Positions 7,136 to 63,836 of a stretch of 64,000 bases of DNA are shown piece by piece. This stretch comes from Thiofilum sp. (GTDB lineage Bacteria; Pseudomonadota; Gammaproteobacteria; Thiotrichales; Thiotrichaceae), in NCBI RefSeq assembly GCF_016711335.1, contig NZ_JADJTF010000001.1, forward strand, positions 2,321,401-2,385,400, read 5' to 3'. The position numbers and the translations under genes are program-made. The notes beneath the pieces were generated by a model that searched no databases, was not told the origin of the DNA, and saw only the letters and a program-made list of their open reading frames with translations. The first letter of the stretch is position 1. The number at the start of each line of letters is the position of its first letter.

Positions 7136-7805
7136 GGATTGGTCGGCTATTGGGCTGACCTTACAGTTAGCCCTTGTCACCACTGTTATTTTATTAGTGA
7201 TGGGTACACCGATTGCATGGTGGTTAGCGACTACGCGCTCGCGTCTTAAAGTGCTAATCGGTTCAGTGGTGGCGTTGCCCTTGGTATTGCCGCCTACGGT
7301 ATTGGGCTTTTATTTATTAGTGTTTCTGAGTCCACAAAGTACCTTAGGGCAATGGATGCAAAGTATCGGGCTTAATACTTTGCCTTTTACCTTTGCGGGA
7401 ATGGTGGTGGCCTCAGTTATTTATTCCGCTCCTTTTGTGATTCAGCCCTTACAAAATGCGTTTGAAACGGTGAATCGTCATTATTTAGAGGTAGCCGCTA
7501 CGTTGGGCGCGTCTAAGCAGCGCACTTTTTGGCAGATTGTGTTGCCTTTGTCGCGGCATGGGATTTTAACCGCCTGTGTGTTGGGGTTTGCGCATACGGT
7601 GGGTGAGTTTGGGGTGGTACTCATGATCGGGGGTAATATTCCCGACCGTACTCGTGTGGTATCGATGCAAATTTATAATCATGTTGAGGCGCTCGAATAT
7701 GAGCAAGCGCATACCTTAGCGTTAGGTATGGTGATATTCGCCTTTGTGGTGCTAGTGATGATGTATTGGCTCAATCAATATACTGCGCCACGTAAGAAGT
7801 ATTGA
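7119..7805 (+). CDS. modB: Molybdate ABC transporter permease ModB
   Basis: ATG at 7119 (MLLSPEDWSAIGLTLQLA, typical ModB start) overlapping the modA end by 17 nt. The longer ORF from 7044 is also possible. Carries the EAA-like loop of ABC permeases. No modC follows. Confidence 0.8.
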   Translation: MLLSPEDWSAIGLTLQLALVTTVILLVMGTPIAWWLATTRSRLKVLIGSVVALPLVLPPTVLGFYLLVFLSPQSTLGQWMQSIGLNTLPFTFAGMVVASVIYSAPFVIQPLQNAFETVNRHYLEVAATLGASKQRTFWQIVLPLSRHGILTACVLGFAHTVGEFGVVLMIGGNIPDRTRVVSMQIYNHVEALEYEQAHTLALGMVIFAFVVLVMMYWLNQYTAPRKKY

Positions 7806-7833
7806 GAACTTTGCTTGATCGCCAAGCCTTTGC

Positions 7834-9831
7834 TCAGTCCCCTAATAAAGCGCTTAAGCTTGCTACATAAGCACTCGCTGTAGCTTGTCTTTGTTCGGGG
7901 GTAATGACTTTCTTATCTTGCCATTCAATATGTTCAGTCGGTAATTCATCTAAAAATCGGCTGGGATCACAGGTTTCTGTTTCACCGTATTTAGTGCGCG
8001 TTTTGGCATAGCTAATGGTTAAATGCTGCTGGGCGCGGGTGATGCCTACATAGGCTAAACGCCGCTCCTCTTGAATACCTTGCGCATCTTGGCTATTCAA
8101 ATGCGGTAGCGTGTCATCTTCCATACCCACTAAAAACACTTGAGGAAATTCTAGCCCTTTTGCAGCGTGCAATGTCATTAAAGTCACTGCATCTTGCTCG
8201 GCTTCCTCACTATTGCGCTCTAATAAATCCACTAAGCTCATATGAGCGACCATTTCGCTAATCGACTCTTTACCCTCACCATCGGCATAGAGTTTGTCCA
8301 TCCATTGCACGACTTCATGCACATTTTCCATACGCTTTTCAGCAATTTTGGGTGAATTGCTGCTTTCATGTAACCAATCCTCATAACGCAACTCGCCCAT
8401 TAAACGCTTCACCATTTCAGGAGGGGGCGTATTATCCGCATCACGACGTAATTGATTTACCCAGCCAGTAAAATTATCTAAGCGTTCTGAGGTTTTATTT
8501 CCCACCCGATCCGCAAAACCCATTTCTTGAGCAGCGGTAAATAAACTTACATGGCGTTGATGCGCATACTCACCTAACTTTTCTAAAGTGCTCGTACCTA
8601 TTTCGCGGCGCGGGGTATTAATTACGCGCAAAAAGGCTGTGTCATCATCGGGATTACTCAGTAGGCGCAAATAGGCTAGGGTATCTTTTACTTCAGTACG
8701 CTCAAAAAATGAAGTACCACCCGTTAATTTATATGGGATTTGATTTTCTCGTAAATACTTTTCAAATAGCCTACTTTGATGATTGCTTCGATATAAAATA
8801 GCAAAGTGTTTAAACGGTATTCGATCTCTAAAACGACGCTTTAGCATTTCGCCTATGATCATTTGTGCTTCATGATCAGCAGTACGACAAGGCATAATTA
8901 AAATCGGCTCACCTTCACCCAAAGTACTCCAAAGCTGTTTTTCAAATAGGTGTGGATTATTGCTAATGAGTTTATTGGCACTTTCTAAAATACGCTTAGT
9001 GGAGCGATAGTTTTGTTCTAGTTTAATTACTTGTAGTGTTGGATAGTCGCGTTGTAATTGAATAATATTTTCTGGACGTGCTCCGCGCCATGCATAAATC
9101 GATTGATCATCATCCCCCACTGCCGTAAATGCACCGCGAATACCCGCTAATTGTTTAACTAATTGATATTGGCAGGCATTAGTATCTTGATATTCATCCA
9201 CTAATAAATAGCGCAGTCTATTTTGCCATTTTTGTAGTACTTCAGGATGTTTCTGAAATAAGCGCACTGGTAAAACGATTAAATCATCGAAATCAACGGC
9301 ATTATAGGCTTTAATTTGGCGCTGATAGTGCTCATAAAGTTTAGCGGCTAATAATTCATCTTCATTAATGGCTTGCTGTAAAGCTTGTTCTGGATTAATA
9401 AAATTATTTTTCCAGCGTGAGATAGCATGACGAATACGCTCTACATCACCCGCTTCAAATTTTTCGGCTAATTCGACTAATACGGATTGGCTATCCTGTG
9501 CATCTAAAATACTAAAACCATTTTTATAGCCTAGACGTTTTACTTCTGATTTAAAAATCGAAAGTCCTAAGGTATGAAAGGTGGAAATGGTTAAGCCTTT
9601 ACCTTCACCTGCGCGTAGTAATTTACCAGCGCGTTCTTGCATTTCGCGTGCAGCTTTATTAGTAAAGGTAATCGCGGCAATACTTTTAGGATCGTAATTA
9701 GCTTGGCGAATGAGCCATGCAATTTTTTCGGTAATAACCCGCGTTTTGCCACTACCAGCTCCGGCTAGTACCAGTAAAGGTGAGCCTAAATGCGTTACCG
9801 CTTCGCGTTGTTGAGGATTTAAGCCAGTCAT
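7834..9831 (-). CDS. rep: ATP-dependent DNA helicase Rep (UvrD/Rep family SF1)
   Basis: Start ATG at 9831 (MTGLNPQQREAVTHLGSPLLVLAGAGSGKT, Walker A). Also DEYQDTN, QNYRST and TLHAAKGLEF motifs. The 665-aa length fits Rep better than UvrD. Confidence 0.75.
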   Translation of the reverse strand: MTGLNPQQREAVTHLGSPLLVLAGAGSGKTRVITEKIAWLIRQANYDPKSIAAITFTNKAAREMQERAGKLLRAGEGKGLTISTFHTLGLSIFKSEVKRLGYKNGFSILDAQDSQSVLVELAEKFEAGDVERIRHAISRWKNNFINPEQALQQAINEDELLAAKLYEHYQRQIKAYNAVDFDDLIVLPVRLFQKHPEVLQKWQNRLRYLLVDEYQDTNACQYQLVKQLAGIRGAFTAVGDDDQSIYAWRGARPENIIQLQRDYPTLQVIKLEQNYRSTKRILESANKLISNNPHLFEKQLWSTLGEGEPILIMPCRTADHEAQMIIGEMLKRRFRDRIPFKHFAILYRSNHQSRLFEKYLRENQIPYKLTGGTSFFERTEVKDTLAYLRLLSNPDDDTAFLRVINTPRREIGTSTLEKLGEYAHQRHVSLFTAAQEMGFADRVGNKTSERLDNFTGWVNQLRRDADNTPPPEMVKRLMGELRYEDWLHESSNSPKIAEKRMENVHEVVQWMDKLYADGEGKESISEMVAHMSLVDLLERNSEEAEQDAVTLMTLHAAKGLEFPQVFLVGMEDDTLPHLNSQDAQGIQEERRLAYVGITRAQQHLTISYAKTRTKYGETETCDPSRFLDELPTEHIEWQDKKVITPEQRQATASAYVASLSALLGD

Positions 9832-40483: not shown

Positions 40484-40867
40484 TTAAGATTTTGGTGTGG
40501 TTTTATCTACTTTTGCGGGTTGTTTAGTCGTTTCTGATGGTGGTGTATCTTTGGATAGGTTGGTTGGAGCTGGAGTACTGGTTTGAGTACTACCCAGTCC
40601 CTCGGTTAAAGAAATATCAGCTTTGATTTTCTCAAATAATTTAGGGCCAATGCCTTTCACTTCCTGAATTTCTTCTAGGGTTTTAAAACCACCCTTTTCA
40701 GTACGATAATCAATAATGGCTTGAGCTTTTTTCTCCCCTACACCTTTAAGCTGTTCTTGTAGAACCTTAATGTCTGCGGTATTGATATTGACTAACTCAG
40801 CTAAGACGGTTGAAGAAGAAATGAGACTCATAGCTAAGACAGTGGCTTTTATTAGTTGTTTTATCAT
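40484..40867 (-). CDS. comEA: ComEA-family helix-hairpin-helix DNA-binding protein
   Basis: Signal peptide, then VNINTADIKVLQEQLKGVGEKKAQAIIDYRTEKGGFKTLEEIQEVKGIGPKLFEKIK (HhH), then a Thr/Pro-rich tail. Confidence 0.75.
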   Translation of the reverse strand: MIKQLIKATVLAMSLISSSTVLAELVNINTADIKVLQEQLKGVGEKKAQAIIDYRTEKGGFKTLEEIQEVKGIGPKLFEKIKADISLTEGLGSTQTSTPAPTNLSKDTPPSETTKQPAKVDKTTPKS

Positions 40868-41037
40868 GGGGTTTACCTGAGTAGTTTATTATTATGGTTG
40901 ATTCAACCGTAAAGAAATTTATTATTTATTTTTATATGAAGCTAATTTTTCTGTATTAACGGTTGGTTTAGAGTGCTCCTTCTAAGGTGTAGGTAAAAGC
41001 TCGTTTTAGGTTATGTTGACATTTAATAAGCTCAAAT

Positions 41038-41137
41038 GTAGAGGTTTTGATCATAGGTGGTTTGGTTCATGGTGCTACCTGTGTATTGGAAGAGATAGCC
41101 ATCGAAGGGGATGTAGGTTTGTGTTAAAGCTGGCATT
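41038..41137 (-). pseudogene. Decayed stub: 5' end of a Uma2-like gene (MPALTQTYIPFDGY...) joined to the 5' end of a DUF29-like gene (MNQTTYDQNLY...)
   Basis: 41093-41140 is about 88 % identical to 44921-44970 (the Uma2 no. 2 start region). 41038-41090 is about 89 % identical to 44206-44258 (the DUF29 start region). Confidence 0.6.
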
Positions 41138-41144
41138 GCCATTC

Positions 41145-41744
41145 CTACTTAAAATCAACGTCTTCATAAAAATCGGTAATTGGGCAGCATAAGCCTACAC
41201 AGGTGAGTTCTACGTTGCTATTCTCGCCTGCAAAGCTAAATAGTTCCCATCGGTGGTTTTCGTTGAGGCGAAAAACTTGTACAAGGTATTGCGTAGGGTC
41301 AATTAACACATATTCACGCAGACTGGTTAGCTGGCGATAGGCATCAAATTTACCACCTTTGTCATAGTCTTTGGTACTTTCCGAGAGTACTTCAATCACT
41401 AGAATAGGTGCATATTTAGTGGTGTTGTGCTCGCGGTCATTGGGGTTGCAGGTGACCATGACATCAGGGTAGAAATAGGCTTTATCGTTGGCGTCGATTT
41501 TGAGGCGCATATCAGACATGTAAAGGCTACAGCCTGAGCCGCGAAGATGTGTTTTTAGTGCGTAGTGTACATTGCCTGTCACTTTAACATGCGCATCGGT
41601 AGCCCCCGCCATATTGGTGATAGGATTCCAATGTAAAGGGTAGACAAAGCCATTCAGGTACTCGTGTTTCTCGGTGGCAACTGTTTCAGTAGCTAAGTAA
41701 TCAGCTTCGGTGATAACAGGCTGTTCAGCGAGGTTGCGACTCAT
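41145..41744 (-). CDS. Uma2-family (DUF820) putative PD-(D/E)XK endonuclease, copy 1
   Basis: 199-aa ORF: EYLNGFVYPL ... YPDVMVTC ... ILVIEVLSESTKDYDKGGKFDAYRQLTSLREYVLID are the Uma2 family motifs. Confidence 0.75.
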   Translation of the reverse strand: MSRNLAEQPVITEADYLATETVATEKHEYLNGFVYPLHWNPITNMAGATDAHVKVTGNVHYALKTHLRGSGCSLYMSDMRLKIDANDKAYFYPDVMVTCNPNDREHNTTKYAPILVIEVLSESTKDYDKGGKFDAYRQLTSLREYVLIDPTQYLVQVFRLNENHRWELFSFAGENSNVELTCVGLCCPITDFYEDVDFK

Positions 41745-41834
41745 GACATATACCTATGTTTTATTGGAGTTAGGTGTCGAGTATAGCAGTTTAGCGTTGG
41801 AGTTGCAGATAGGCTTGGGCGCTTAGTTCAGTCC

Positions 41835-43844
41835 TTAACTCGAAGAGGCTTGTTTTAGGGGAAAGGGGATAATGATGTTAGGGAGAAGGGTAGTAGCTTG
41901 AGAAACATTTGAGGGAGGAGCGTGGTGTTCATTACTAGCGGGTAATGATAACTCGGTTGGGAGGTGAGTGGGTTTGAAACCATTAACATGTTGTAATAGT
42001 AGTTGATAAATCGTATGCAAATCACGTTGGGAGCAGGCGTATTGTAGTGAGTTAATCACTTGTTGGATTTTAGGCCAAGTTAAGTAGTCTTCATAGGCTT
42101 GGCGGATGCGAGGGTGTTGTGTGGTTTGCGCATTATCATCAATCAGTAACTCTTCATAAAGTTTTTCGCCCGGTCTTAAGCCACTAAACTCAATAGCAAT
42201 ATCGCCGTAAGGGTTGGTTTCATCCTTAACCGATAAGCCCTTCAAGTGAATCATGCGCCGCGCTAGATCGACAATTTTAACAGGCTCACCCATATCCAAT
42301 AAGAACACTTCCCCTCCCTTAGCTAAAGCACCTGCTTGGATCACTAACTGTGCTGCTTCAGGAATGGTCATAAAATAACGAATAATGTCAGGATGGGTGA
42401 CAGTAATCGGGCCACCTTGCTGGATTTGTTTGCGGAATAAGGGGACGACTGAACCGGACGAGCCTAATACATTGCCAAAACGTACCATGCTAAATTGAGT
42501 ATATTGGGATTGCTCGGAGATACCCTGTAATACTAATTCAGCCATGCGTTTGCTAGCGCCCATGACATTAGTGGGGCGCACAGCTTTGTCAGTAGAAATT
42601 AATACAAAGTGCTTGACCTTATGAGCGAGTGCTGCCTGTGCAGTATGATAAGTGCCTAAAGTATTATTGCGTATGCCCTCAATCGGGTTGTGCTCAACGA
42701 GGGGAACATGCTTATAAGCGGCGGCATGGTAGAGCGTTTGAATCTGGTGGGTTTTAATGGTTTCATCAAGTCGCTGGCGGTCTTGTACCGAACCTAACAC
42801 TGGGGTAATAGGGATAGTTAAACCTTCACTGCGATTAATTTCCAAAAGTTCATGTTCAATTTGATACAGGGCATATTCACTCAGTTCGTAAAGCACGATA
42901 GAGCTAGGTTGTTGACGGATAATTTGGCGGCAGAGTTCTGATCCTATAGAGCCACCCGCACCCGTGACCATGACATGGTGATGGTGGATACATTGGCTTA
43001 GTAACTCTTGATTGGGTGCTACTGCTTCACGCCCCAGTAGCTCATCTATATCAATCTCGCGTACTTCCTCAATGGAACGCTGCCCGGATAATAGCTCAGT
43101 CATGCTAGGTATAGTGCGTACATGTACCGGCAGTGGCTCTAAGGCTTGGATAATTTGGCGCTTGCGGGTGTGAGAGATGAGTGGCATGGCTAAGAAGATG
43201 TGTTTCACCCCATAATGTTCAATCAAATGTGTCGCTTGTTCGGGTGAGTGAATAGATAAGCCCTGAATTAGAGACTTATGTAGGCTGGGATTATCATCTA
43301 AAAAAGCTACTGCACGATAATGTTCGCTATGTTCTAGGGCTGAGGCTAGTTGTGCGCCTGATTGTCCAGCGCCGTAGATAATAATGGAGGCGCGTTGTTG
43401 TTGGTGTTGTCGTGAGTTGAGTAGTTGATAATAGCGGCGCATCAGGTAGCGACTACCACCAGTAAATAATAAAGCGGTTCCCCAGTAGATAGGGTAAATA
43501 GATTGAGGGATGCCTTTCCAATTGGCAAGCGTTGCTATGACCCAGAGCACCAATGTGCTTAAGGTTACCCCTATAATCACTGATTGTAAGGCGCGTACTC
43601 CCATAAAACGGATAATAGAGCGATAGAGTCCGAGCCTAGTAAAGATGATCAACGTCACTAGGGGAGCAACTAGCATAAGCCAAAGTCCATCATTGAGCTT
43701 GGGTGTCCAAGTGCTAAGACGTAGGGCAAAGCTAACCCAAATGGCAAAAGGGAGTATGAGCAGATCTGCACCAAGCATGATGATGCGTTTTTGCCAGCGG
43801 GGTAGGGCGAATAGGGTATGTAGGGATTGAGGTGGATTAAACAT
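41835..43844 (-). CDS. Membrane-bound UDP-N-acetylglucosamine 4,6-dehydratase-type polysaccharide biosynthesis protein (PglF/WbpM/CapD family)
   Basis: Four N-terminal TM helices, a first Rossmann domain (IIYGAGQSG), and an SDR catalytic domain (VMVTGAGGSIGSEL ... YHAAAYKHVPL ... TDKAV). Confidence 0.8.
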   Translation of the reverse strand: MFNPPQSLHTLFALPRWQKRIIMLGADLLILPFAIWVSFALRLSTWTPKLNDGLWLMLVAPLVTLIIFTRLGLYRSIIRFMGVRALQSVIIGVTLSTLVLWVIATLANWKGIPQSIYPIYWGTALLFTGGSRYLMRRYYQLLNSRQHQQQRASIIIYGAGQSGAQLASALEHSEHYRAVAFLDDNPSLHKSLIQGLSIHSPEQATHLIEHYGVKHIFLAMPLISHTRKRQIIQALEPLPVHVRTIPSMTELLSGQRSIEEVREIDIDELLGREAVAPNQELLSQCIHHHHVMVTGAGGSIGSELCRQIIRQQPSSIVLYELSEYALYQIEHELLEINRSEGLTIPITPVLGSVQDRQRLDETIKTHQIQTLYHAAAYKHVPLVEHNPIEGIRNNTLGTYHTAQAALAHKVKHFVLISTDKAVRPTNVMGASKRMAELVLQGISEQSQYTQFSMVRFGNVLGSSGSVVPLFRKQIQQGGPITVTHPDIIRYFMTIPEAAQLVIQAGALAKGGEVFLLDMGEPVKIVDLARRMIHLKGLSVKDETNPYGDIAIEFSGLRPGEKLYEELLIDDNAQTTQHPRIRQAYEDYLTWPKIQQVINSLQYACSQRDLHTIYQLLLQHVNGFKPTHLPTELSLPASNEHHAPPSNVSQATTLLPNIIIPFPLKQASSS

Positions 43845-43998
43845 AGTTATAGGCTCTGAGGCTGTTTATAGTGCTTGTATGTAGCCGGTTTTTAAGAAAG
43901 TTATGAGATTATTAGAGTTATTGTACTACCCGATCTCTTTGTCCTTAAAAGTATGGGTGAGCCGACGGTTAAGCCGAAGGCAGAAAAATGAGTTTAGC

Positions 43999-44238
43999 TT
44001 ACATTATAATATTATTAAGAATCAGCACCCGGTAGGCGGGTTGGTATTGCCATTTCAGCAGGTGCATGAGCAGAGTTTCCAAAAAGGATTGCAAGGCACG
44101 CTTTTCGGATTTACTCATGTCCTCGATTTCCTCGATGATGTGTTCCCAATCTACTTGATCGAATTTGCGTTCGCGCAGGAGTTGTGCTTGTTGTAATGAC
44201 CAAGTGTAGAGGTCTTGGTCGTAGGTGGCTTGGTTCAT
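43999..44238 (-). CDS. DUF29-family protein
   Basis: 79-aa ORF MNQATYDQDLYTWSLQQAQLLRERKFDQVDWEHIIEEIEDMSKSEKRALQSFLETLLMHLLKWQYQP, the canonical DUF29 helix bundle. Confidence 0.7.
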   Translation of the reverse strand: MNQATYDQDLYTWSLQQAQLLRERKFDQVDWEHIIEEIEDMSKSEKRALQSFLETLLMHLLKWQYQPAYRVLILNNIIM

Positions 44239-44364
44239 GGTGCTACCTGTGTATTGGGTGGGATAGATAAGCGGGCGGGTTCGCCGTGCCTACTTGCGCC
44301 GTAGATGTAGTTACGTTTTCCCTGCATATTATCAGGTCAACTCATTGGGGCGATGCTGTAGTGT

Positions 44365-44970
44365 TTATCCGTTTTTTTGCATGGGGAATGGAACATCTAA
44401 CCCGACTTCACGCCTGACTCTGCGGTAGATATGGTGTACGGCTATTTCTAAACCAACCGATTCCAGCATTAGGGTGTCTTCGGCGTAATAGGATTCTAAT
44501 TGCCAATGGGTGCGGCGGCGGTAAACCCGTAGATAGGGCGTTTCTTGCGAAACCACGACGTATTCCAGCAGGGTAGGAATTTGGGTGTAATTATCGAATT
44601 TTTCTTTGAGGTCAACCCGCTTGGTTGAGCCAGATAGCACTTCGACAATCAGTATGGGGTTAGTGCGGTAATACGGGTCGTCAGTATTTTCACCACAAGC
44701 TGCCATGATGTCAGGGTAATAGGAAAACGGTTTGTTGTCGCGGGTTTTTCCAATCACTTTCATGTCAGATTGCCAGACGCGACAGGTGTCTTTCAGGGCA
44801 TTATCGATAGCAGAACCAAGTGTATGAGCGATGGTGTTATGGGTTTCACTAGCGCCTGCCATGGCGTAGATTTCACCCTCCACGTATTCGCTGCGGGTAT
44901 CTACGTCGCGTTCGCCTTCCAGATAGTCATCGAAGGGGATGTAAGTTTGTTTTAAAGCTTGCATTACCAT
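44365..44970 (-). CDS. Uma2-family (DUF820) putative endonuclease, copy 2
   Basis: EYVEGEIYAM ... YPDIMAACG ... ILIVEVLSGSTKRVDLKEKFDNYTQIPTLLEYVVV, paralogous to 41145..41744. Confidence 0.75.
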   Translation of the reverse strand: MVMQALKQTYIPFDDYLEGERDVDTRSEYVEGEIYAMAGASETHNTIAHTLGSAIDNALKDTCRVWQSDMKVIGKTRDNKPFSYYPDIMAACGENTDDPYYRTNPILIVEVLSGSTKRVDLKEKFDNYTQIPTLLEYVVVSQETPYLRVYRRRTHWQLESYYAEDTLMLESVGLEIAVHHIYRRVRREVGLDVPFPMQKNG

Positions 44971-45010
44971 AGGATTGCTTCCGCTCTACTGTGTTGATTT
45001 AGTAAATATT

Positions 45011-45284
45011 TCAACAAGTATAGCAAATTAGCGCTGGTTTTGCTGGTAGGCTTGGGCGGTCTGGTGTAGGGCTTTGTCGACGCTGACGGGGGGCAAGCCA
45101 AGCAAGTCGCGGGTTTTGCTGATGTCGATTTGTAGGTGGTCGCAGAAGTGTTGGGTGATGGCGTGCGTGCCCATTAGGATTAGTGCGGTTTCTAGCCAGC
45201 CTTGGGGGATGGGGAGTAAGCGTGCAGGTTTGCCTAAGGCGTAGCTGAGGCATTGCAGGAGTTCGGTGATGGAAAGGTCTTCGC
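45011..45284 (-). pseudogene. C-terminal roughly 90-aa remnant of an NAD-dependent sugar epimerase/dehydratase (GalE/WbpV-like), lacking its N-terminus
   Basis: Minus-strand frame reads [85 protein letters not shown], a typical epimerase C-terminus. No upstream continuation. The ORF-track 80-aa Pro/Arg-rich ORF is in a different frame. Confidence 0.55.
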
Positions 45285-45878
45285 CTAGCTCACAATGGCT
45301 CTAAACGTGCGCATGATCAGTATGAGGTCTAACAGTACGTTGTGGTTGGTGGCATATTGAGTGTAATAGCGAAGCTTAATCGGCAGTATGGTTTCTTTGT
45401 AAGTTTGTTCGGGATTATCAGATTGCCCTAGCAGGGTATTTTCATTTTTGAATTCGATGGATGCTAGATCCGTAATGCCGGGTTTAACGGAGAGTACGAC
45501 TTCACGCAGGTGCTCTGGGTAACAGGCGACGTATTTGGGGACTTCGGGGCGAGGACCGACTAAACTCATCTTGCCGATGACAACATCGATCAGTTGTGGG
45601 AGTTCGTCGAGCTTATAGTAGCGCAGAAACGCACCGGAGCGAGTGATGCGGCTGTCATTGCCAACCGTAATTTGCAGGCCACGCTTTTCTGCATCCGTTA
45701 CCATAGTGCGGAATTTGTGGATGCGGAAGGTTTTGCCGAATTGTCCAACTCGTTCTTGGCGAAAGAAAATGGGACCGAGAGAATCCCACTTAATCCAGAC
45801 TGCAATTATCAGAAAAAGTGGGCTAAGTAAAATTAAACCTACAGTGGCAAAGAAAAAGTCGAAGAGTCGTTTTGACAT
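45285..45878 (-). CDS. Bacterial sugar transferase (PglC / WbaP C-terminal-like initiating phosphoglycosyl transferase)
   Basis: Single re-entrant helix ([19 protein letters not shown]), [10 protein letters not shown], and the [22 protein letters not shown] catalytic motif. Confidence 0.8.
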
Positions 45879-60305: not shown

Positions 60306-61883
60306 TTATTTGCTCAAGATTATCTGTACATAATCCTGTTGAATGGCTGTCAAATCCGCCCCCATCGGCAAACTCATCACACGCTGCGCTCTATCCTTCG
60401 CAATCGGCGTACAATCCCCACAACACAAATCCCGATAAGCAGGCTGTTCATTCAAAGGCACAGGATAATGCACCGCTGTTGGAATCCCAGCTTCCCTAAA
60501 CCGCGCTTCCACCTCACTGCGGTTTTCCACCAACACCGTATACTGCGCAAACACACTCGTCCGATCATCCCGCTGCTGTATTCGCTGCACCCCAGCCTCA
60601 TCCATTAAGGCATTATACCGCTGCCCAATGACAACCCGCTGCTCCACTTCCCAATCAAACCGTTCCAGCTTCGCCAGCACCACCGCACATTGCAGCGTAT
60701 CCATCCGCCCACCCACACCCACACGGGTATGGTAATAACGCCGACTCTGCCCATGAATCCGAATCTCCCGACAAGCCTGATAAATGGCATCATCATCGGT
60801 AAAAATCGCCCCACCATCCCCATAACAACCCAAGGGCTTACTCGGAAAAAAACTAGTACAACCAATCGTAGAAAGATGACAACTCTTCCTACCCTTATAC
60901 GTCGCCCCGAAACTCTGCGCTGCATCCTCAATCACTGGCAAATTATACTTCGCCGCAATCGCATTAATCTCATCCATATCCGCAGGTTGACCATACAAAC
61001 TCACTGGCATAATCGCCTTAGTCCGTTCAGTAATTTTAGCCTCAATCAAACCCGCATCCATATTACAAGTATCTGGCTCAATATCCACAAACACCGGCTT
61101 TGCACCCAACAACACAATCACCTCAGCCGTCGCCACAAAGGTAAACGGCGTGGTAATCACCTCATCCCCCGCACCAATCCCCAATGCCATCAAGCTGATC
61201 AACAAGGCTTCCGTGCCACTGGCCACCGTAATGCAATGCTTCGCACCCGTATAAGCGGCGAGCTTCTTTTCCAGTAGTTCCACTTCTGGCCCCATGATAT
61301 ACGTGCCATGTTGCAAAACCGCATGAATATTACGCTGTAATTGCGGACGGATGGCACGTTGCTGGACAGCCAAATCAATAAACGGCATCTTTTCTGGCTT
61401 TTTTGACCATGCTGCCAAACCTTGCTCCAGTAACTCTTTCGGATGCAAGGCAAGTATCTTTGAGGATTTCAAAAACCACTTATCACGGGTGATAATGACC
61501 GGGTTAGGCAAATACTGCTCTGCCAGAAAACCAATTAACTGATCTTCCAGATCATCCCCGACCTCAGCATCCAGCGTAGCCAACTCATCCCCCACTTGTG
61601 GCAGTGGCTTGAGCAAGCTACTCAATTCTTGTAACAAGACACGAGCCGCCTGAATCGATTCACGCCGATTCTGAGCATCTTTTGCCAAGGCACGCTCAAG
61701 CAAGTAATACACCGTACTCAAGGTATGGGGTGCATACCAAGCCTCTACTTCACCATTACGTACCAACTCCAGCACGCTCACCGCATCTGCGTAATAAGCC
61801 CCGCGTGCAGCCAAAGCATCAACCAAGACATTGGTATCAAAAACGAGCTGTATTTGAGTGTGTTTATAGCTATTAACGACCAA
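60306..61883 (-). CDS. In-frame fusion ORF: N-terminal PIN-domain (VapC-like) plus C-terminal WbpE-like UDP-2-acetamido-2-deoxy-3-oxo-D-glucuronate aminotransferase
   Basis: N-terminus LVFDTNVLVDAL...LEDQLIGFLAEQ...ITRDKWFLK (four PIN acidic positions). From MPFIDLAVQQRAI onward near-colinear with WbpE (LQHGTYIMGPEVELLEKKLAAYTGAKHC ... DAAQSFGATYKGRKSC ... FFPSKPLGCYGDGGAIFT). The junction contains a T6 run (61399-61404); one extra base would create a stop just after the WbpE ATG. Confidence 0.6.
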   Translation of the reverse strand: MVVNSYKHTQIQLVFDTNVLVDALAARGAYYADAVSVLELVRNGEVEAWYAPHTLSTVYYLLERALAKDAQNRRESIQAARVLLQELSSLLKPLPQVGDELATLDAEVGDDLEDQLIGFLAEQYLPNPVIITRDKWFLKSSKILALHPKELLEQGLAAWSKKPEKMPFIDLAVQQRAIRPQLQRNIHAVLQHGTYIMGPEVELLEKKLAAYTGAKHCITVASGTEALLISLMALGIGAGDEVITTPFTFVATAEVIVLLGAKPVFVDIEPDTCNMDAGLIEAKITERTKAIMPVSLYGQPADMDEINAIAAKYNLPVIEDAAQSFGATYKGRKSCHLSTIGCTSFFPSKPLGCYGDGGAIFTDDDAIYQACREIRIHGQSRRYYHTRVGVGGRMDTLQCAVVLAKLERFDWEVEQRVVIGQRYNALMDEAGVQRIQQRDDRTSVFAQYTVLVENRSEVEARFREAGIPTAVHYPVPLNEQPAYRDLCCGDCTPIAKDRAQRVMSLPMGADLTAIQQDYVQIILSK

Positions 61884-62181
61884 AATAACGTTCCTCTAGG
61901 GCATCCTGTAACATTTGCTCATCATCACCAATACTAGAGCTAGGGCGCGTCAAAGCTAATCTACCCAACAGTTGATTTAACCGCTCCTGAAGACTTCCGG
62001 GCTTTGCTGGCGGTACTTTTCCTAATGTTTCAGGTACAGGCAAATCGACGAACCAATCGCGAGCTTCCAGAAGTGCCTCGTCCGGTATTTCCACCTGGTA
62101 GCGCATGGGGGCATCGGGTTTTAAATAAATCGGATGTACAAACTTTACCTGACCGTGTTGAACAATAATTTCTGCTTGCAT
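61873..62181 (-). CDS. DUF104-like putative antitoxin (upstream partner of the PIN domain)
   Basis: ATG at 62181: MQAEIIVQHGQVKFVHPIYLKPDAPMRYQVEIPDEALLE resembles DUF104 antitoxins (VYENGVLKPLE..L.EG..V.V.I). Overlaps the PIN start by 11 nt. Confidence 0.45.
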   Translation of the reverse strand: MQAEIIVQHGQVKFVHPIYLKPDAPMRYQVEIPDEALLEARDWFVDLPVPETLGKVPPAKPGSLQERLNQLLGRLALTRPSSSIGDDEQMLQDALEERYFGR

Positions 62182-62191
62182 GGTATTATCC

Positions 62192-62767
62192 TTACGTTGT
62201 GACCTGACCCGCTTTAAGCATATAGGCTTTGCCGGTATGCGGGCAAATTGCCATCCCGTCACCGGTCAGTGGCAAATCCAGTTTTTCACCGTGTTCGCTC
62301 ATCCAGCCAATCTGTTTGGCAGGTACACCCACCATCAGCGCGTAAGCAGGTACATCTTTGTTAACAACAGTACCTGCACCGATAAAGGCAAATTCTCCAA
62401 TGGTAACACCACAAACGATGGTACAGTTAGCCCCTAACGTTGCACCACGTTTGACTAGGGTATTGCGGTATTCATCCTTACGCTCCACTAATGCCCGTGG
62501 GTTATAAACATTGGTAAATACCATGCTAGGGCCGCAAAACACTCCATCTTCCAGTATTACATTGTCATACACAGAGACATTGTTCTGCACTTTGCATTGA
62601 TTGCCGATCACGACCTTGTTGCCAACGAAGACATTTTGCCCTAGGGATACACCATTACCAATACGAGCACCTCCGCATACATGTGCCCAGTGCCAAACCC
62701 GACTACCGGAACCAATTTGAGCACCTTCATCAACGATAGCAGTGGGGTGGATAAAAATGTCATTCAC
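62192..62767 (-). CDS. wbpD: UDP-2-acetamido-3-amino-2,3-dideoxy-D-glucuronate N-acetyltransferase (WbpD-like, LbH)
   Basis: [49 protein letters not shown] is close to P. aeruginosa WbpD. Confidence 0.75.
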
Positions 62768-62769
62768 AC

Positions 62770-63836
62770 CTAAAACTCCAATGGCAAAGAGATAGTCTTA
62801 CCATCACGTGCCGACAAATAAGCTGCAATCAATAGTTCCAGCGACTTTAGACCTTCACGCCCATCCGTCTCAGGTTCAGCATGACCACGCATTACCTCTA
62901 CTATATTGTTGTAATACAGCGGATGCCCAAAGCCATACACCGAAGTGGTTTCATAATTGGCACTCTGAATGTGTGCATCATAATCACGTGGTTCGTCAAA
63001 CTGCCATAGCTGAATGTCGTTAACCGCAACTCCACCAATGCGTACTGTGCCTTTATCACCTAAGATCGTGATTGAACCTTCTAAGTTTTTGGGATAAGTC
63101 AGCATAGTAACTGCCATAGAACCTAGTACCCATTGCGCCAGCGCACGTTTAATACGCCCGTATCTTCCACCTCAATATCACGGGTGGTGCTGGTCATGGC
63201 TTGAACTTTATCTACTGGACCTATGAGCCAATCTAATAAATCAACATAATGGCTAGCTTGATTCATGAATGCACCGCCATCGAATTCCCATGTACCTCGC
63301 CAGCCATTACCTTGGTCATAGTAGGATTGAGGACGCGTCCAAAATACATTGAGATGCACCATGTGAATTTTGCCGAAACGTCTTTCCTCAGTGGCGCGTT
63401 TGAGTAATTGTAAGGTGGTATTGCGGCGGTTCTGCTTGACTACAAATAACCGAACGCCTGCCTCATCACAGGCTTTTACCATGCGTACCCCATCAGACCA
63501 ACGAGTAGCCATCGGCTTTTCAGTGATGACATGTACACCGTATTTGGCAGCTAATACAGCTTGGTCGGGATGTAGACCACTGGGTGTACATAACGCCACC
63601 AGATCAGGTTGGTGGCGCTGTAACATGTCTTCCATACGAAGGTACGCGGGTACATCGAAGCGCTCTGCATAAGGAGCTGATTGAGTAGGATCAATATCAC
63701 AAACAGCGACTAGCTCCAGATCTTGTTGATGCTGCTCAATAGAGCCAAAATGATTTTTGGCAATACGCCCGCAACCTACAACAGCTATGCGGATTTTACG
63801 GTCAGTAATGGTAGGGAACATAGTTATAGACGCCAT
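62770..63836 (-). CDS. wbpB: UDP-N-acetyl-2-amino-2-deoxy-D-glucuronate oxidase (WbpB-like, Gfo/Idh/MocA); frame broken near 63130-63135
   Basis: N-terminal [16 protein letters not shown] (Rossmann); C-terminal [30 protein letters not shown] ... [13 protein letters not shown] ... [22 protein letters not shown]. The two ORFs (63123..63836 and 62770..63117) join as RWRNG|[14 protein letters not shown] if one G is added at the ggg run. Confidence 0.7.

Follow-up and report, generated by a model that had tools for sequence, protein, structure and literature searches.

The 64-kb window analysed here (64,000 nucleotides (nt), the whole stretch of DNA under study) comes from a Thiofilum sp. and carries a polysaccharide locus in which a gene for a PglF/CapD-like UDP-sugar 4,6-dehydratase is flanked on both sides by arrays of small gene cassettes. 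These arrays hold two intact genes of the Uma2 family (DUF820), called Uma2 no. 1 and Uma2 no. 2 below, a DUF29 gene and, directly behind the stop codon of Uma2 no. 1, a stub of ~110 bp. A previous reading made from the letters alone (the sequence-only reading) had proposed that this stub is what remains of a second Uma2-DUF29 module. The proposal stands: intact arrays of epimerase, Uma2 no. 1 and Uma2 no. 2 are found in relatives, and the join inside the stub carries the signature of a deletion. We consider it highly probable that the stub is the non-functional remainder of genes two and three of an array (epimerase tail, Uma2 no. 1, Uma2 no. 2, DUF29) lodged in a defined slot of an exopolysaccharide operon of Thiotrichales. 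The host is a Thiofilum sp. of that order and belongs neither to the cyanobacteria nor to the giant sulfur bacteria, the groups mentioned in the sequence-only reading.

Cassettes, repeats and relics around the PglF gene

Genes of the window were identified by Pfam profile search with curated cut-offs (27 bits for Uma2, PF05685). The features from the ComEA-like gene to the sugar transferase gene are listed below in window coordinates, with the strand in brackets; relatives are designated by locus handles (L002 and so on).

40484-40867 (-): ComEA-like gene, DNA-binding (competence) type
40868..41032 (-): spacer before the ComEA-like gene; holds 40926-40978, weakly similar to the PglF stop and downstream sequence of L002
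41033..41098 (-): DUF29 relic, a 28-nt leader and codons 1-12; 88% identical to 44201-44266
41093..41142 (-): Uma2 no. 2-type relic, codons 1-17; 90% identical to 44921-44970
41145..41744 (-): Uma2 no. 1, intact (PF05685), first gene of the tandem cassette; leader at 41745-41779
41780..41821 (-): repeat D3, copy 1; a 31-nt epimerase-tail relic (AQAYLQLQR and the stop), then TAA-N3-TGCTATACT; 14 nt past the PglF stop
41835..43844 (-): PglF/CapD-like UDP-sugar 4,6-dehydratase gene (Polysacc_synt_2, 419 bits; 54-79% amino acid (aa) identity to relatives)
43946..43992 (-): putative remnant of a Bac_transf N-terminus, encoding ..FSAFGLTVGSPILL..; aligns with Bac_transf codons 5-22
43999..44238 (-): truncated DUF29 gene (PF01724), 79 aa versus ~149
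44365..44970 (-): Uma2 no. 2, intact (PF05685); 57-nt leader at 44971-45027
45017..45058 (-): repeat D3, copy 2; epimerase tail (AQAYQQNQR and the stop), then TAA-N3-TGCTATACT
45028..45285 (-): pseudogene fragment of an NAD-dependent epimerase (last 85 codons)
45285-45878 (-): Bac_transf sugar transferase gene, the locus's own copy

The coordinates proposed earlier for both Uma2 genes and for DUF29 hold, and the Pfam search places them in PF05685 and PF01724. Uma2 no. 1 scores 99.1 bits and Uma2 no. 2 scores 93.5 bits; since the two proteins are only 32% identical, they are old paralogues and not recent duplicates. None of the residues conserved at 97% or more among 235 relatives is missing from Uma2 no. 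2, and Uma2 no. 1 departs from this set once, with C182 in place of S, outside the core. The core set itself (E28, H, D, Y-P-D, E-V-L-S, D, K, E) is complete in both proteins and probably forms a PD-(D/E)XK catalytic motif. Both proteins also match the PADLOC PDC-S03 models (E 1e-24 to 1e-29, including 4e-29 and 5e-26), while a sequence search of the PDB with Uma2 no. 2 gave no match and an exact protein look-up of Uma2 no. 1 returned none. The ratio of non-synonymous to synonymous divergence (dN/dS) is ~0.06-0.12 over all comparisons with orthologues, showing that both genes are under strong purifying selection.

The epimerase upstream of Uma2 no. 2 is truncated, as had been noticed from the sequence: 45046-45285 is 80% identical in nucleotides and 76.5% in amino acids to the 3' end of the intact L002 epimerase, and the fragment is collinear with positions 7683-8600 of the Thiothrix unzii locus (L020). 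It was named by none of the Pfam, NCBIfam and PDB sequence searches, its identity coming from the comparison with L002 and T. unzii. Its ratio of non-synonymous to synonymous differences (pN/pS) is ~0.6 against L021, which points to relaxed constraint, and the sequence 5' of it is apparently replaced by the locus's own Bac_transf gene and variable genes. On the other side of the DUF29 gene, 43946-43992 could be aligned to T. unzii (L020 8607 onwards) and to L002; it is probably a remnant of the ancestral Bac_transf gene, the similarity being so short that this is the least certain part of the map.

A repeat search combined with blastn within the window recovered three repeats. The first joins 41033-41098 to 44201-44266 (66 nt, 88%, E 1e-17) and the second joins 41093-41142 to 44921-44970 (50 nt, 90%, E 1e-12), so that the similarities of about 50 nt reported by the sequence-only reading are reproduced and do not reflect chance. 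Both peptide fragments of the stub were also recovered by tblastn. The third repeat, D3, links 41780-41821 to 45017-45058 (42 nt, 83%, E 1e-5) and lies upstream of both Uma2 genes. Further copies of Uma2 or DUF29 were not found in the window.

Read on the coding strand, the stop codon of Uma2 no. 1 is followed by 2 nt, 17 Uma2 codons, the 28-nt DUF29 leader and DUF29 codons 1-12. The stub was thus correctly recognised as the 5' ends of Uma2 no. 2 and DUF29, but its extent had been underestimated (about 15 Uma2 codons instead of 17, and a DUF29 part now placed at codons 1-12 plus the leader). The two pieces share the pentanucleotide GATAG (41094-41098), and because each of the parental sequences contains these 5 nt (44262-66 and 44922-26), the join is best explained by a 660-bp deletion through 5-nt microhomology. 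The relic of Uma2 differs from the intact copy at five positions, four of them second codon positions and four of them non-synonymous; in the relic of DUF29, which begins with an ATG at 41070-41068, codon 12 has changed from TGG to TGA. Such second-position changes, together with the stop in DUF29, are the pattern expected of unconstrained decay. Of itself, the stub is an ordinary gene relic.

The operon slot in relatives

By "slot" we mean the space between the epimerase gene and the Bac_transf/PglF genes. Its content varies among relatives: it is empty or holds Uma2 no. 2, Uma2 no. 1 with Uma2 no. 2, DUF29, or other small accessory genes, in the following gene orders.

L002 (Pseudomonadota metagenome-assembled genome; PglF 79% aa identity): glycosyltransferase, intact epimerase, Bac_transf, PglF, ComEA, CpsB, Wza; no Uma2 or DUF29
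L020 (Thiothrix unzii, complete genome): epimerase, Uma2 no. 2 orthologue (89%), Bac_transf, PglF
L021-L028 (Thiothrix-type): epimerase, Uma2 no. 1 (90%), Uma2 no. 2 (90%), Bac_transf, PglF, CpsB, Wza (Wzc in L021)
L003 type: DegT, DUF29, Uma2 no. 2, PglF
L009: DegT, Uma2 no. 2, epimerase fragment, PglF
L010 type: DegT, Uma2 no. 2, PglF; a third Uma2 paralogue further upstream
L034 and L036: epimerase, DUF29, Bac_transf
L032: epimerase, 260-aa gene of unknown type, second epimerase tail, DUF29, Bac_transf, PglF
L029: epimerase fragment, AAA ATPase, BrnA antitoxin, 160-aa Uma2, second epimerase tail, Uma2 no. 1 (95%), Uma2 no. 2 stub (9-10 codons) with an unrelated gene fragment, PglF

In the empty slot of L002, the single relative obtained from the genome collection, Bac_transf overlaps the epimerase gene by 17 nt. 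In T. unzii, a stretch of 930 nt (epimerase 3' end, 57-nt spacer, Uma2) is collinear with positions 45285-44365 of the window. The two Uma2 genes of L021-L028 lie 12 nt apart by gene calls and ~6 nt apart by homology. Orthologues of Uma2 no. 2 with 88-95% aa identity are found just upstream of PglF/Bac_transf in L003, L009, L010, L020 and L021, an orthologue of the L015 type (81% identical) lies upstream of an intact epimerase, and the cluster of Uma2 no. 2 proteins at 90% identity covers Thiofilum and four Thiothrix species. No match was obtained when the PglF query was run against metagenome contigs.

These arrangements identify what the stub once was. L021 carries an intact Uma2 no. 2 orthologue at exactly the place of the stub, and the whole downstream block of the window (31-nt tail, TGCTATACT, Uma2 no. 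1 leader, Uma2 no. 1, stub) is collinear with the array type of L021 and L029. Because relatives keep the intact array, the stub is read as the relic of its second (Uma2 no. 2-type) and third (DUF29) genes. In this Thiofilum the content of the slot is present in two versions, with PglF between them. In the upstream version (epimerase fragment, Uma2 no. 2, DUF29), DUF29 has lost its 3' half and the old Bac_transf gene almost its whole length; the downstream version keeps Uma2 no. 1 and has lost the 660 bp from Uma2 no. 2 codon 17 to the DUF29 leader, plus everything past DUF29 codon 12. An independent stub was observed in L029 (3709-3760), where the first 9-10 codons of an Uma2 no. 2-type gene behind the Uma2 no. 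1 orthologue are fused to a fragment of a DUF1501 gene; its break point lies at most 25 nt from that of the window stub.

The left ends of the cassettes have a common appearance. D3 consists of the epimerase 3' tail (AQAYL..R and the stop) followed by TAA-N3-TGCTATACT, and its copy 1 is collinear with the epimerase end and the Uma2 no. 1 leader of L021 and L029. The combination of tail and motif has only two matches in the whole window, and it is confined to cassette left ends, recurring there in L003, L020, L021, L029 (twice) and L032 (twice), each cassette or group of cassettes being preceded by a copy of the last 19 to at least 50 nt of the epimerase gene and then TGCTATACT. Retained tails measure 31, ~24, ~19 and at least 50 nt, and tail remnants also lie behind unrelated genes such as DegT (L003, L010). 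Since the length of the tail varies, the joins appear illegitimate and do not share a fixed recombination core; the same is suggested by the lack of attC-like hairpins, terminal inverted repeats, target duplications, transposases and, at 30.6 to 63.8 kb, integrases, which makes them look other than site-specific. No strong inverted repeats were found at the cassette boundaries, and the spacer DNA folds much like shuffled sequence except for a small hairpin in a leader.

Integron cassettes were rejected as an explanation (no attC-like hairpins), and an integron integrase was absent from the open reading frames (ORFs) scanned at 30.6 to 63.8 kb. An insertion sequence (IS) or transposon was likewise rejected: there is no transposase domain, no terminal inverted repeat and, comparing filled with empty sites, no target duplication. 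TGCTATACT itself resembles an extended -10 promoter element; it was not reported by a consensus promoter scan, which also demands a -35 match.

We also observed a leader motif, CACAG(G)TAG, ~8-20 nt before Uma2 and DUF29 starts, at the place expected of a Shine-Dalgarno sequence. It is present in the window at 44971-45000, 44239-44260 and 41071-41092, and in the cassettes of L003, L010, L021, L029, L031 and L032. The leader of Uma2 no. 2 forms a small hairpin (DNA fold z = -2.4) that T. unzii lacks. In L032, the 260-aa ORF (1880-2671) occupies the first cassette position, with the same tail and TGCTATACT left end.

We compared the divergence of the cassettes with that of the polysaccharide genes PglF, CpsB and Wza in the same loci, which served as the baseline in place of housekeeping genes. 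Synonymous divergence (dS) of Uma2 no. 1 from the window copy is 0.35 in L029 and 0.57 in L021 (dN/dS ~0.07). For Uma2 no. 2 it is 0.43 in L009, 0.55 in T. unzii, 0.85-0.86 in L021/L003, 1.5 in L015 and 1.9 in L010. PglF, CpsB and Wza show proportions of synonymous differences (pS) of 0.67-0.83, at or near saturation, with 44-80% aa identity; the flanks are most similar in L002, even though it has no cassettes. Within the region, conservation is highest in the final third of the epimerase (78-87% nucleotide identity); the remainder of that gene reaches 28-76%, Bac_transf 59-72% and most of PglF ~50-70%. For some pairs, the pS of this final third falls to 0.21-0.30, versus ~0.5 in the 5' part, and because the 3' third is so much less diverged, recombination tracts appear to end at the slot. 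As Uma2 dS lies mostly far below the divergence of the flanking genes, this comparison indicates that the Uma2 cassettes and the adjoining epimerase tail have probably been exchanged between genera, more recently than the downstream genes diverged. That the modules are mobile, as the sequence-only reading had suggested, is borne out by this divergence and by the same orthologues being permuted or absent at the slot in relatives.

Close relatives were not found in viral contigs, and a phage origin was rejected on this ground. Neighbours of the Uma2 genes in relatives include a BrnA antitoxin, Fic, a Schlafen/AlbA_2 ATPase and AAA ATPases. The best reading of the Uma2 genes is that they are selfish or defensive cassettes, each a putative solo PD-(D/E)XK nuclease of the kind predicted as toxin or defence candidates.

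How two arrays may have come to flank one PglF gene

The second version of the slot probably arrived by recombination between two diverged alleles of the locus. One homologous crossover would have been combined with one illegitimate join just past the PglF stop, in the manner of homology-facilitated illegitimate recombination. Two deletions would later have removed redundant DNA, namely the 660-bp microhomology deletion and a larger one that began at DUF29 codon 12 and extended towards the point where a second PglF copy ended. On this proposal the upstream version would be the T. unzii type with DUF29 added, and the downstream version the L021/L029 type with DUF29 added. The upstream version would have decayed separately, the 5' three-quarters of its epimerase giving way to variable genes with their own Bac_transf and the old Bac_transf shrinking to ~15 codons. 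A trace of the second PglF copy may survive at 40926-40978: its local alignment with the PglF stop and downstream sequence of L002 scores 27, a value reached by 8 of 500 shuffles, which is suggestive of the end of a lost copy.

The most serious alternative, which we consider possible but clearly less probable than not, is a tandem duplication in situ, from the epimerase tail through Uma2, DUF29 and PglF, after which the second copy lost PglF and most of Uma2 no. 2 and DUF29, and either one copy acquired Uma2 no. 1 or the other was deprived of it. In favour of this, the three repeats are all direct and keep their order across PglF, the derived placement of DUF29 after Uma2 no. 2, with an identical 19-nt leader, is common to the two copies, and the weak PglF-end-like sequence downstream of the stub would be expected. 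However, the copies differ by ~13% (20 of 158 nt), and the Uma2 part of the stub is as close or closer to foreign alleles (95% identity to L009, ~94% to the L029 stub, 92% to T. unzii) as to the resident copy (90%), although the numbers are small and not decisive. Copy 1 is moreover collinear with the L021/L029 array and copy 2 with the T. unzii type, which is not decisive either. Recombination between diverged alleles is favoured because of this ~13% difference and because the stub is at least as close to foreign alleles as to the resident gene.

Several points weigh against the scheme of allele recombination and exchange. The route by which the second array reached the downstream side of PglF is a reconstruction, and a tandem duplication in situ with later deletions would fit nearly as well; the trace of a second PglF copy that the allele scheme predicts is only weakly detectable (p ~0.02). 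The baseline used for transfer consists of polysaccharide genes, which can carry anciently diverged alleles, and with a dS of 1.9 Uma2 no. 2 is about as diverged from L010 as the flanks are, so that the contrast is not general among the relatives. Finally, the window is matched at 100% identity by two short-read assemblies of this strain, yet both of them break at 41717-41723: the contigs L001, L018 (GCA_049643105.1) and L019 end or start there, within the first codons of Uma2 no. 1, and overlap by 1-7 nt. These breaks may hint at a repeat elsewhere in the genome or at population heterogeneity. Consecutive accessions in two NCBI assemblies support the order Uma2 no. 2-DUF29-PglF-[Uma2 no. 1]-ComEA.

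A homing-like drive appears unlikely. Here Uma2 would cut the empty epimerase/Bac_transf junction or a site nearby and be copied in during repair, creating rearrangements and exchange of the variable half of the locus. Such a process would account for the exact placement of a nuclease-fold ORF between two genes which, at the empty site, overlap by 17 nt, for presence and absence at one site across relatives, for the mostly far more recent shared ancestry of Uma2 than of its flanks under strong purifying selection, and for an epimerase similarity that climbs towards the junction like a co-conversion tract. Yet nuclease-free cassettes use the same slot and tail (DUF29, the 260-aa protein of L032, the AAA ATPase and BrnA of L029), the variable tails and their occurrence behind DegT in L003 and L010 fit illegitimate joins better, and Uma2 arrays also occupy other types of site (L014, L111). 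The full form of this idea is slightly more doubtful still: Uma2 genes would be site-directed selfish genes that target the epimerase/sugar-transferase junction and spread between genera by break-induced repair, their breaks driving exchange of the serotype-determining half and the tail representing the co-conversion tract. If true, it would give Uma2 its first concrete function and a defined DNA target.

Could Uma2 no. 2 and DUF29 form a toxin-antitoxin or nuclease-inhibitor module, the stub being a second such module? The two genes adjoin, co-oriented, twice in the window, and they are adjacent in reverse order in L003. The window DUF29 gene is nevertheless a truncated member of its family. 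It scores 94 bits against PF01724 over profile positions 2-66 of 138 and encodes 79 aa, against 149 aa in its cluster mate P0140 (at least 90% identity) and 141-188 aa, mostly ~145-150, in relatives, where a full-length domain comprises ~140-150 aa; similarity to full-length DUF29 ends near 44031 (codon 69), where blastn to L003 also stops. Among solved structures, the closest to it is 3FCN, a helical protein without an assigned function. In L003, a 23-nt tandem duplication within DUF29 (7730-7775; GCGAACGTATCATTGAGCATCTA, twice) shifts the frame, the remainder being readable in another frame, and represents an independent inactivation of DUF29.

DUF29 is thus truncated in both window copies and frameshifted in L003, while Uma2 is intact and constrained; Uma2 no. 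2 orthologues stand without DUF29 in T. unzii, L009, L010 and L021, and DUF29 stands in the slot without Uma2 in L034 and L036. We also examined the 133 immediate neighbours of DUF29 genes in 80 metagenome loci, scanning them with Pfam after a custom hidden Markov model of Uma2 proved too narrow for distant paralogues. Uma2 was not among the families matched by at least two of these neighbours, the recurrent ones being a second DUF29, Bac_transf, resolvase and ribbon-helix-helix (RHH) proteins. The statement that Uma2 and DUF29 are often adjacent is not supported by this sample, and the toxin-antitoxin pair that the sequence-only reading proposed to test is very improbable given the repeated loss of DUF29 beside intact Uma2. 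DUF29 more probably behaves as an independent cassette with no Uma2 partner.

Least probable of all is a functional stub (a terminator, a leader that regulates the ComEA-like gene, or a 35-codon ORF translationally coupled to Uma2 no. 1): its fragments are in frame in an ORF starting 2 nt past the Uma2 no. 1 stop, and L029 also keeps the first Uma2 no. 2 codons behind its Uma2 no. 1, but the changes in the Uma2 part are mostly non-synonymous (four of five), the DUF29 part has gained a stop codon, L029 is truncated elsewhere and continues into part of an unrelated gene, nothing comparable lies between PglF and ComEA in L002, and the stub has no Rfam match, no promoter or terminator match and no unusual RNA fold (z = -1.2).

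Relation to known systems

Makarova et al. (2009, PMC2701414) described Uma2/COG4636 as a predicted PD-(D/E)XK nuclease and a likely solo toxin, one that "mostly forms cassettes of paralogous genes". The tight tandem of distant paralogues without a recognised antitoxin matches this description, as does the four-paralogue array of L111; the difference is that the family was described as cyanobacteria-specific, whereas here it sits in Thiotrichales (Gammaproteobacteria), in one defined operon slot, with probable exchange across genera. Members of the family self-associate and bind paralogues in yeast two-hybrid screens (PMC2779905). DUF820 genes are also lodged in the hox operon of Synechocystis (Kopfmann et al. 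2016, PMC4963859). There too, a small co-oriented Uma2 gene lies inside a conserved metabolic operon beside genes of toxin-antitoxin type (compare BrnA in L029 and Fic in L111), but the operon and the phylum are others, and our case is a polymorphic insertion site with duplicated gene-tail remnants. Matches to the PDC-S03 models of PADLOC, together with Schlafen/AlbA_2, Fic and AAA ATPase neighbours in relatives, recall that system, which is itself only a candidate.

Three further comparisons concern the site as much as its occupants. Phages carry free-standing homing endonuclease genes that spread by intronless homing, for example the seg and mob genes of T4. These resemble the Uma2 cassettes in being nuclease ORFs between conserved genes, variably present, younger than their flanks and bordered by raised similarity; the site is indeed empty in L002 and filled in T. 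unzii, L021-L028 and the window. In contrast to them, non-nuclease cassettes share the slot, the joins look illegitimate and the host is chromosomal. O-antigen and capsule clusters retain, at their junctions, gene remnants and accessory DNA left by recombination between strains. The truncated epimerase and sugar-transferase remnants and the duplicated gene ends at the border of variable and conserved genes are of this kind; here, however, no IS element or transposase is present, and the junction holds constrained nuclease genes and not junk alone. Integron arrays and clusters of attC sites lacking integron-integrases (CALIN) also stack small co-oriented ORFs of unknown or toxin-like function in variable order with a recurring end sequence, but the recurring sequence here is a gene tail of variable length and not an attC hairpin.

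A slot with stacked and exchanged cassettes, each with the remnant of a gene tail, departs modestly from themes already known, namely cassettes of Uma2 paralogues, hot spots for accessory genes and junction remnants of polysaccharide loci. It presents, in filamentous sulfur bacteria (Thiofilum, Thiothrix), a polysaccharide-operon slot at which Uma2 and DUF29 genes are gained, stacked, permuted, exchanged and lost, and thereby the remodelling of a surface-polysaccharide locus in bacteria other than the much-studied enterics. No function has been established for the very large Uma2 family, and the constrained orthologues, the empty and filled sites and the decay intermediates found here make direct testing possible.

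Uma2 paralogue arrays were observed at other types of site as well, in L014 and L111. In L111 (5712-10833; Thiolinea sp.), four Uma2 paralogues, a Schlafen/AlbA_2 ATPase and Fic lie between recC and mannose-nucleotide genes at the start of a polysaccharide cluster, and an 82-aa ORF directly before the Fic gene is a possible antitoxin. The ComEA-like gene lies between PglF and CpsB in the window (40484-40867, minus strand) and in L002 (4658-5089), and is not there in L003, L021 and L029. At 62773-63117 and 63126-63836 (minus strand) of the window, a GFO/IDH/MocA oxidoreductase gene is apparently split into N- and C-terminal ORFs, and the adjoining hexapeptide acetyltransferase gene also looks fragmented (61876-62181 and 62195-62524, minus strand). 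Both are possibly additional pseudogenes of this polysaccharide locus, located at its far end.

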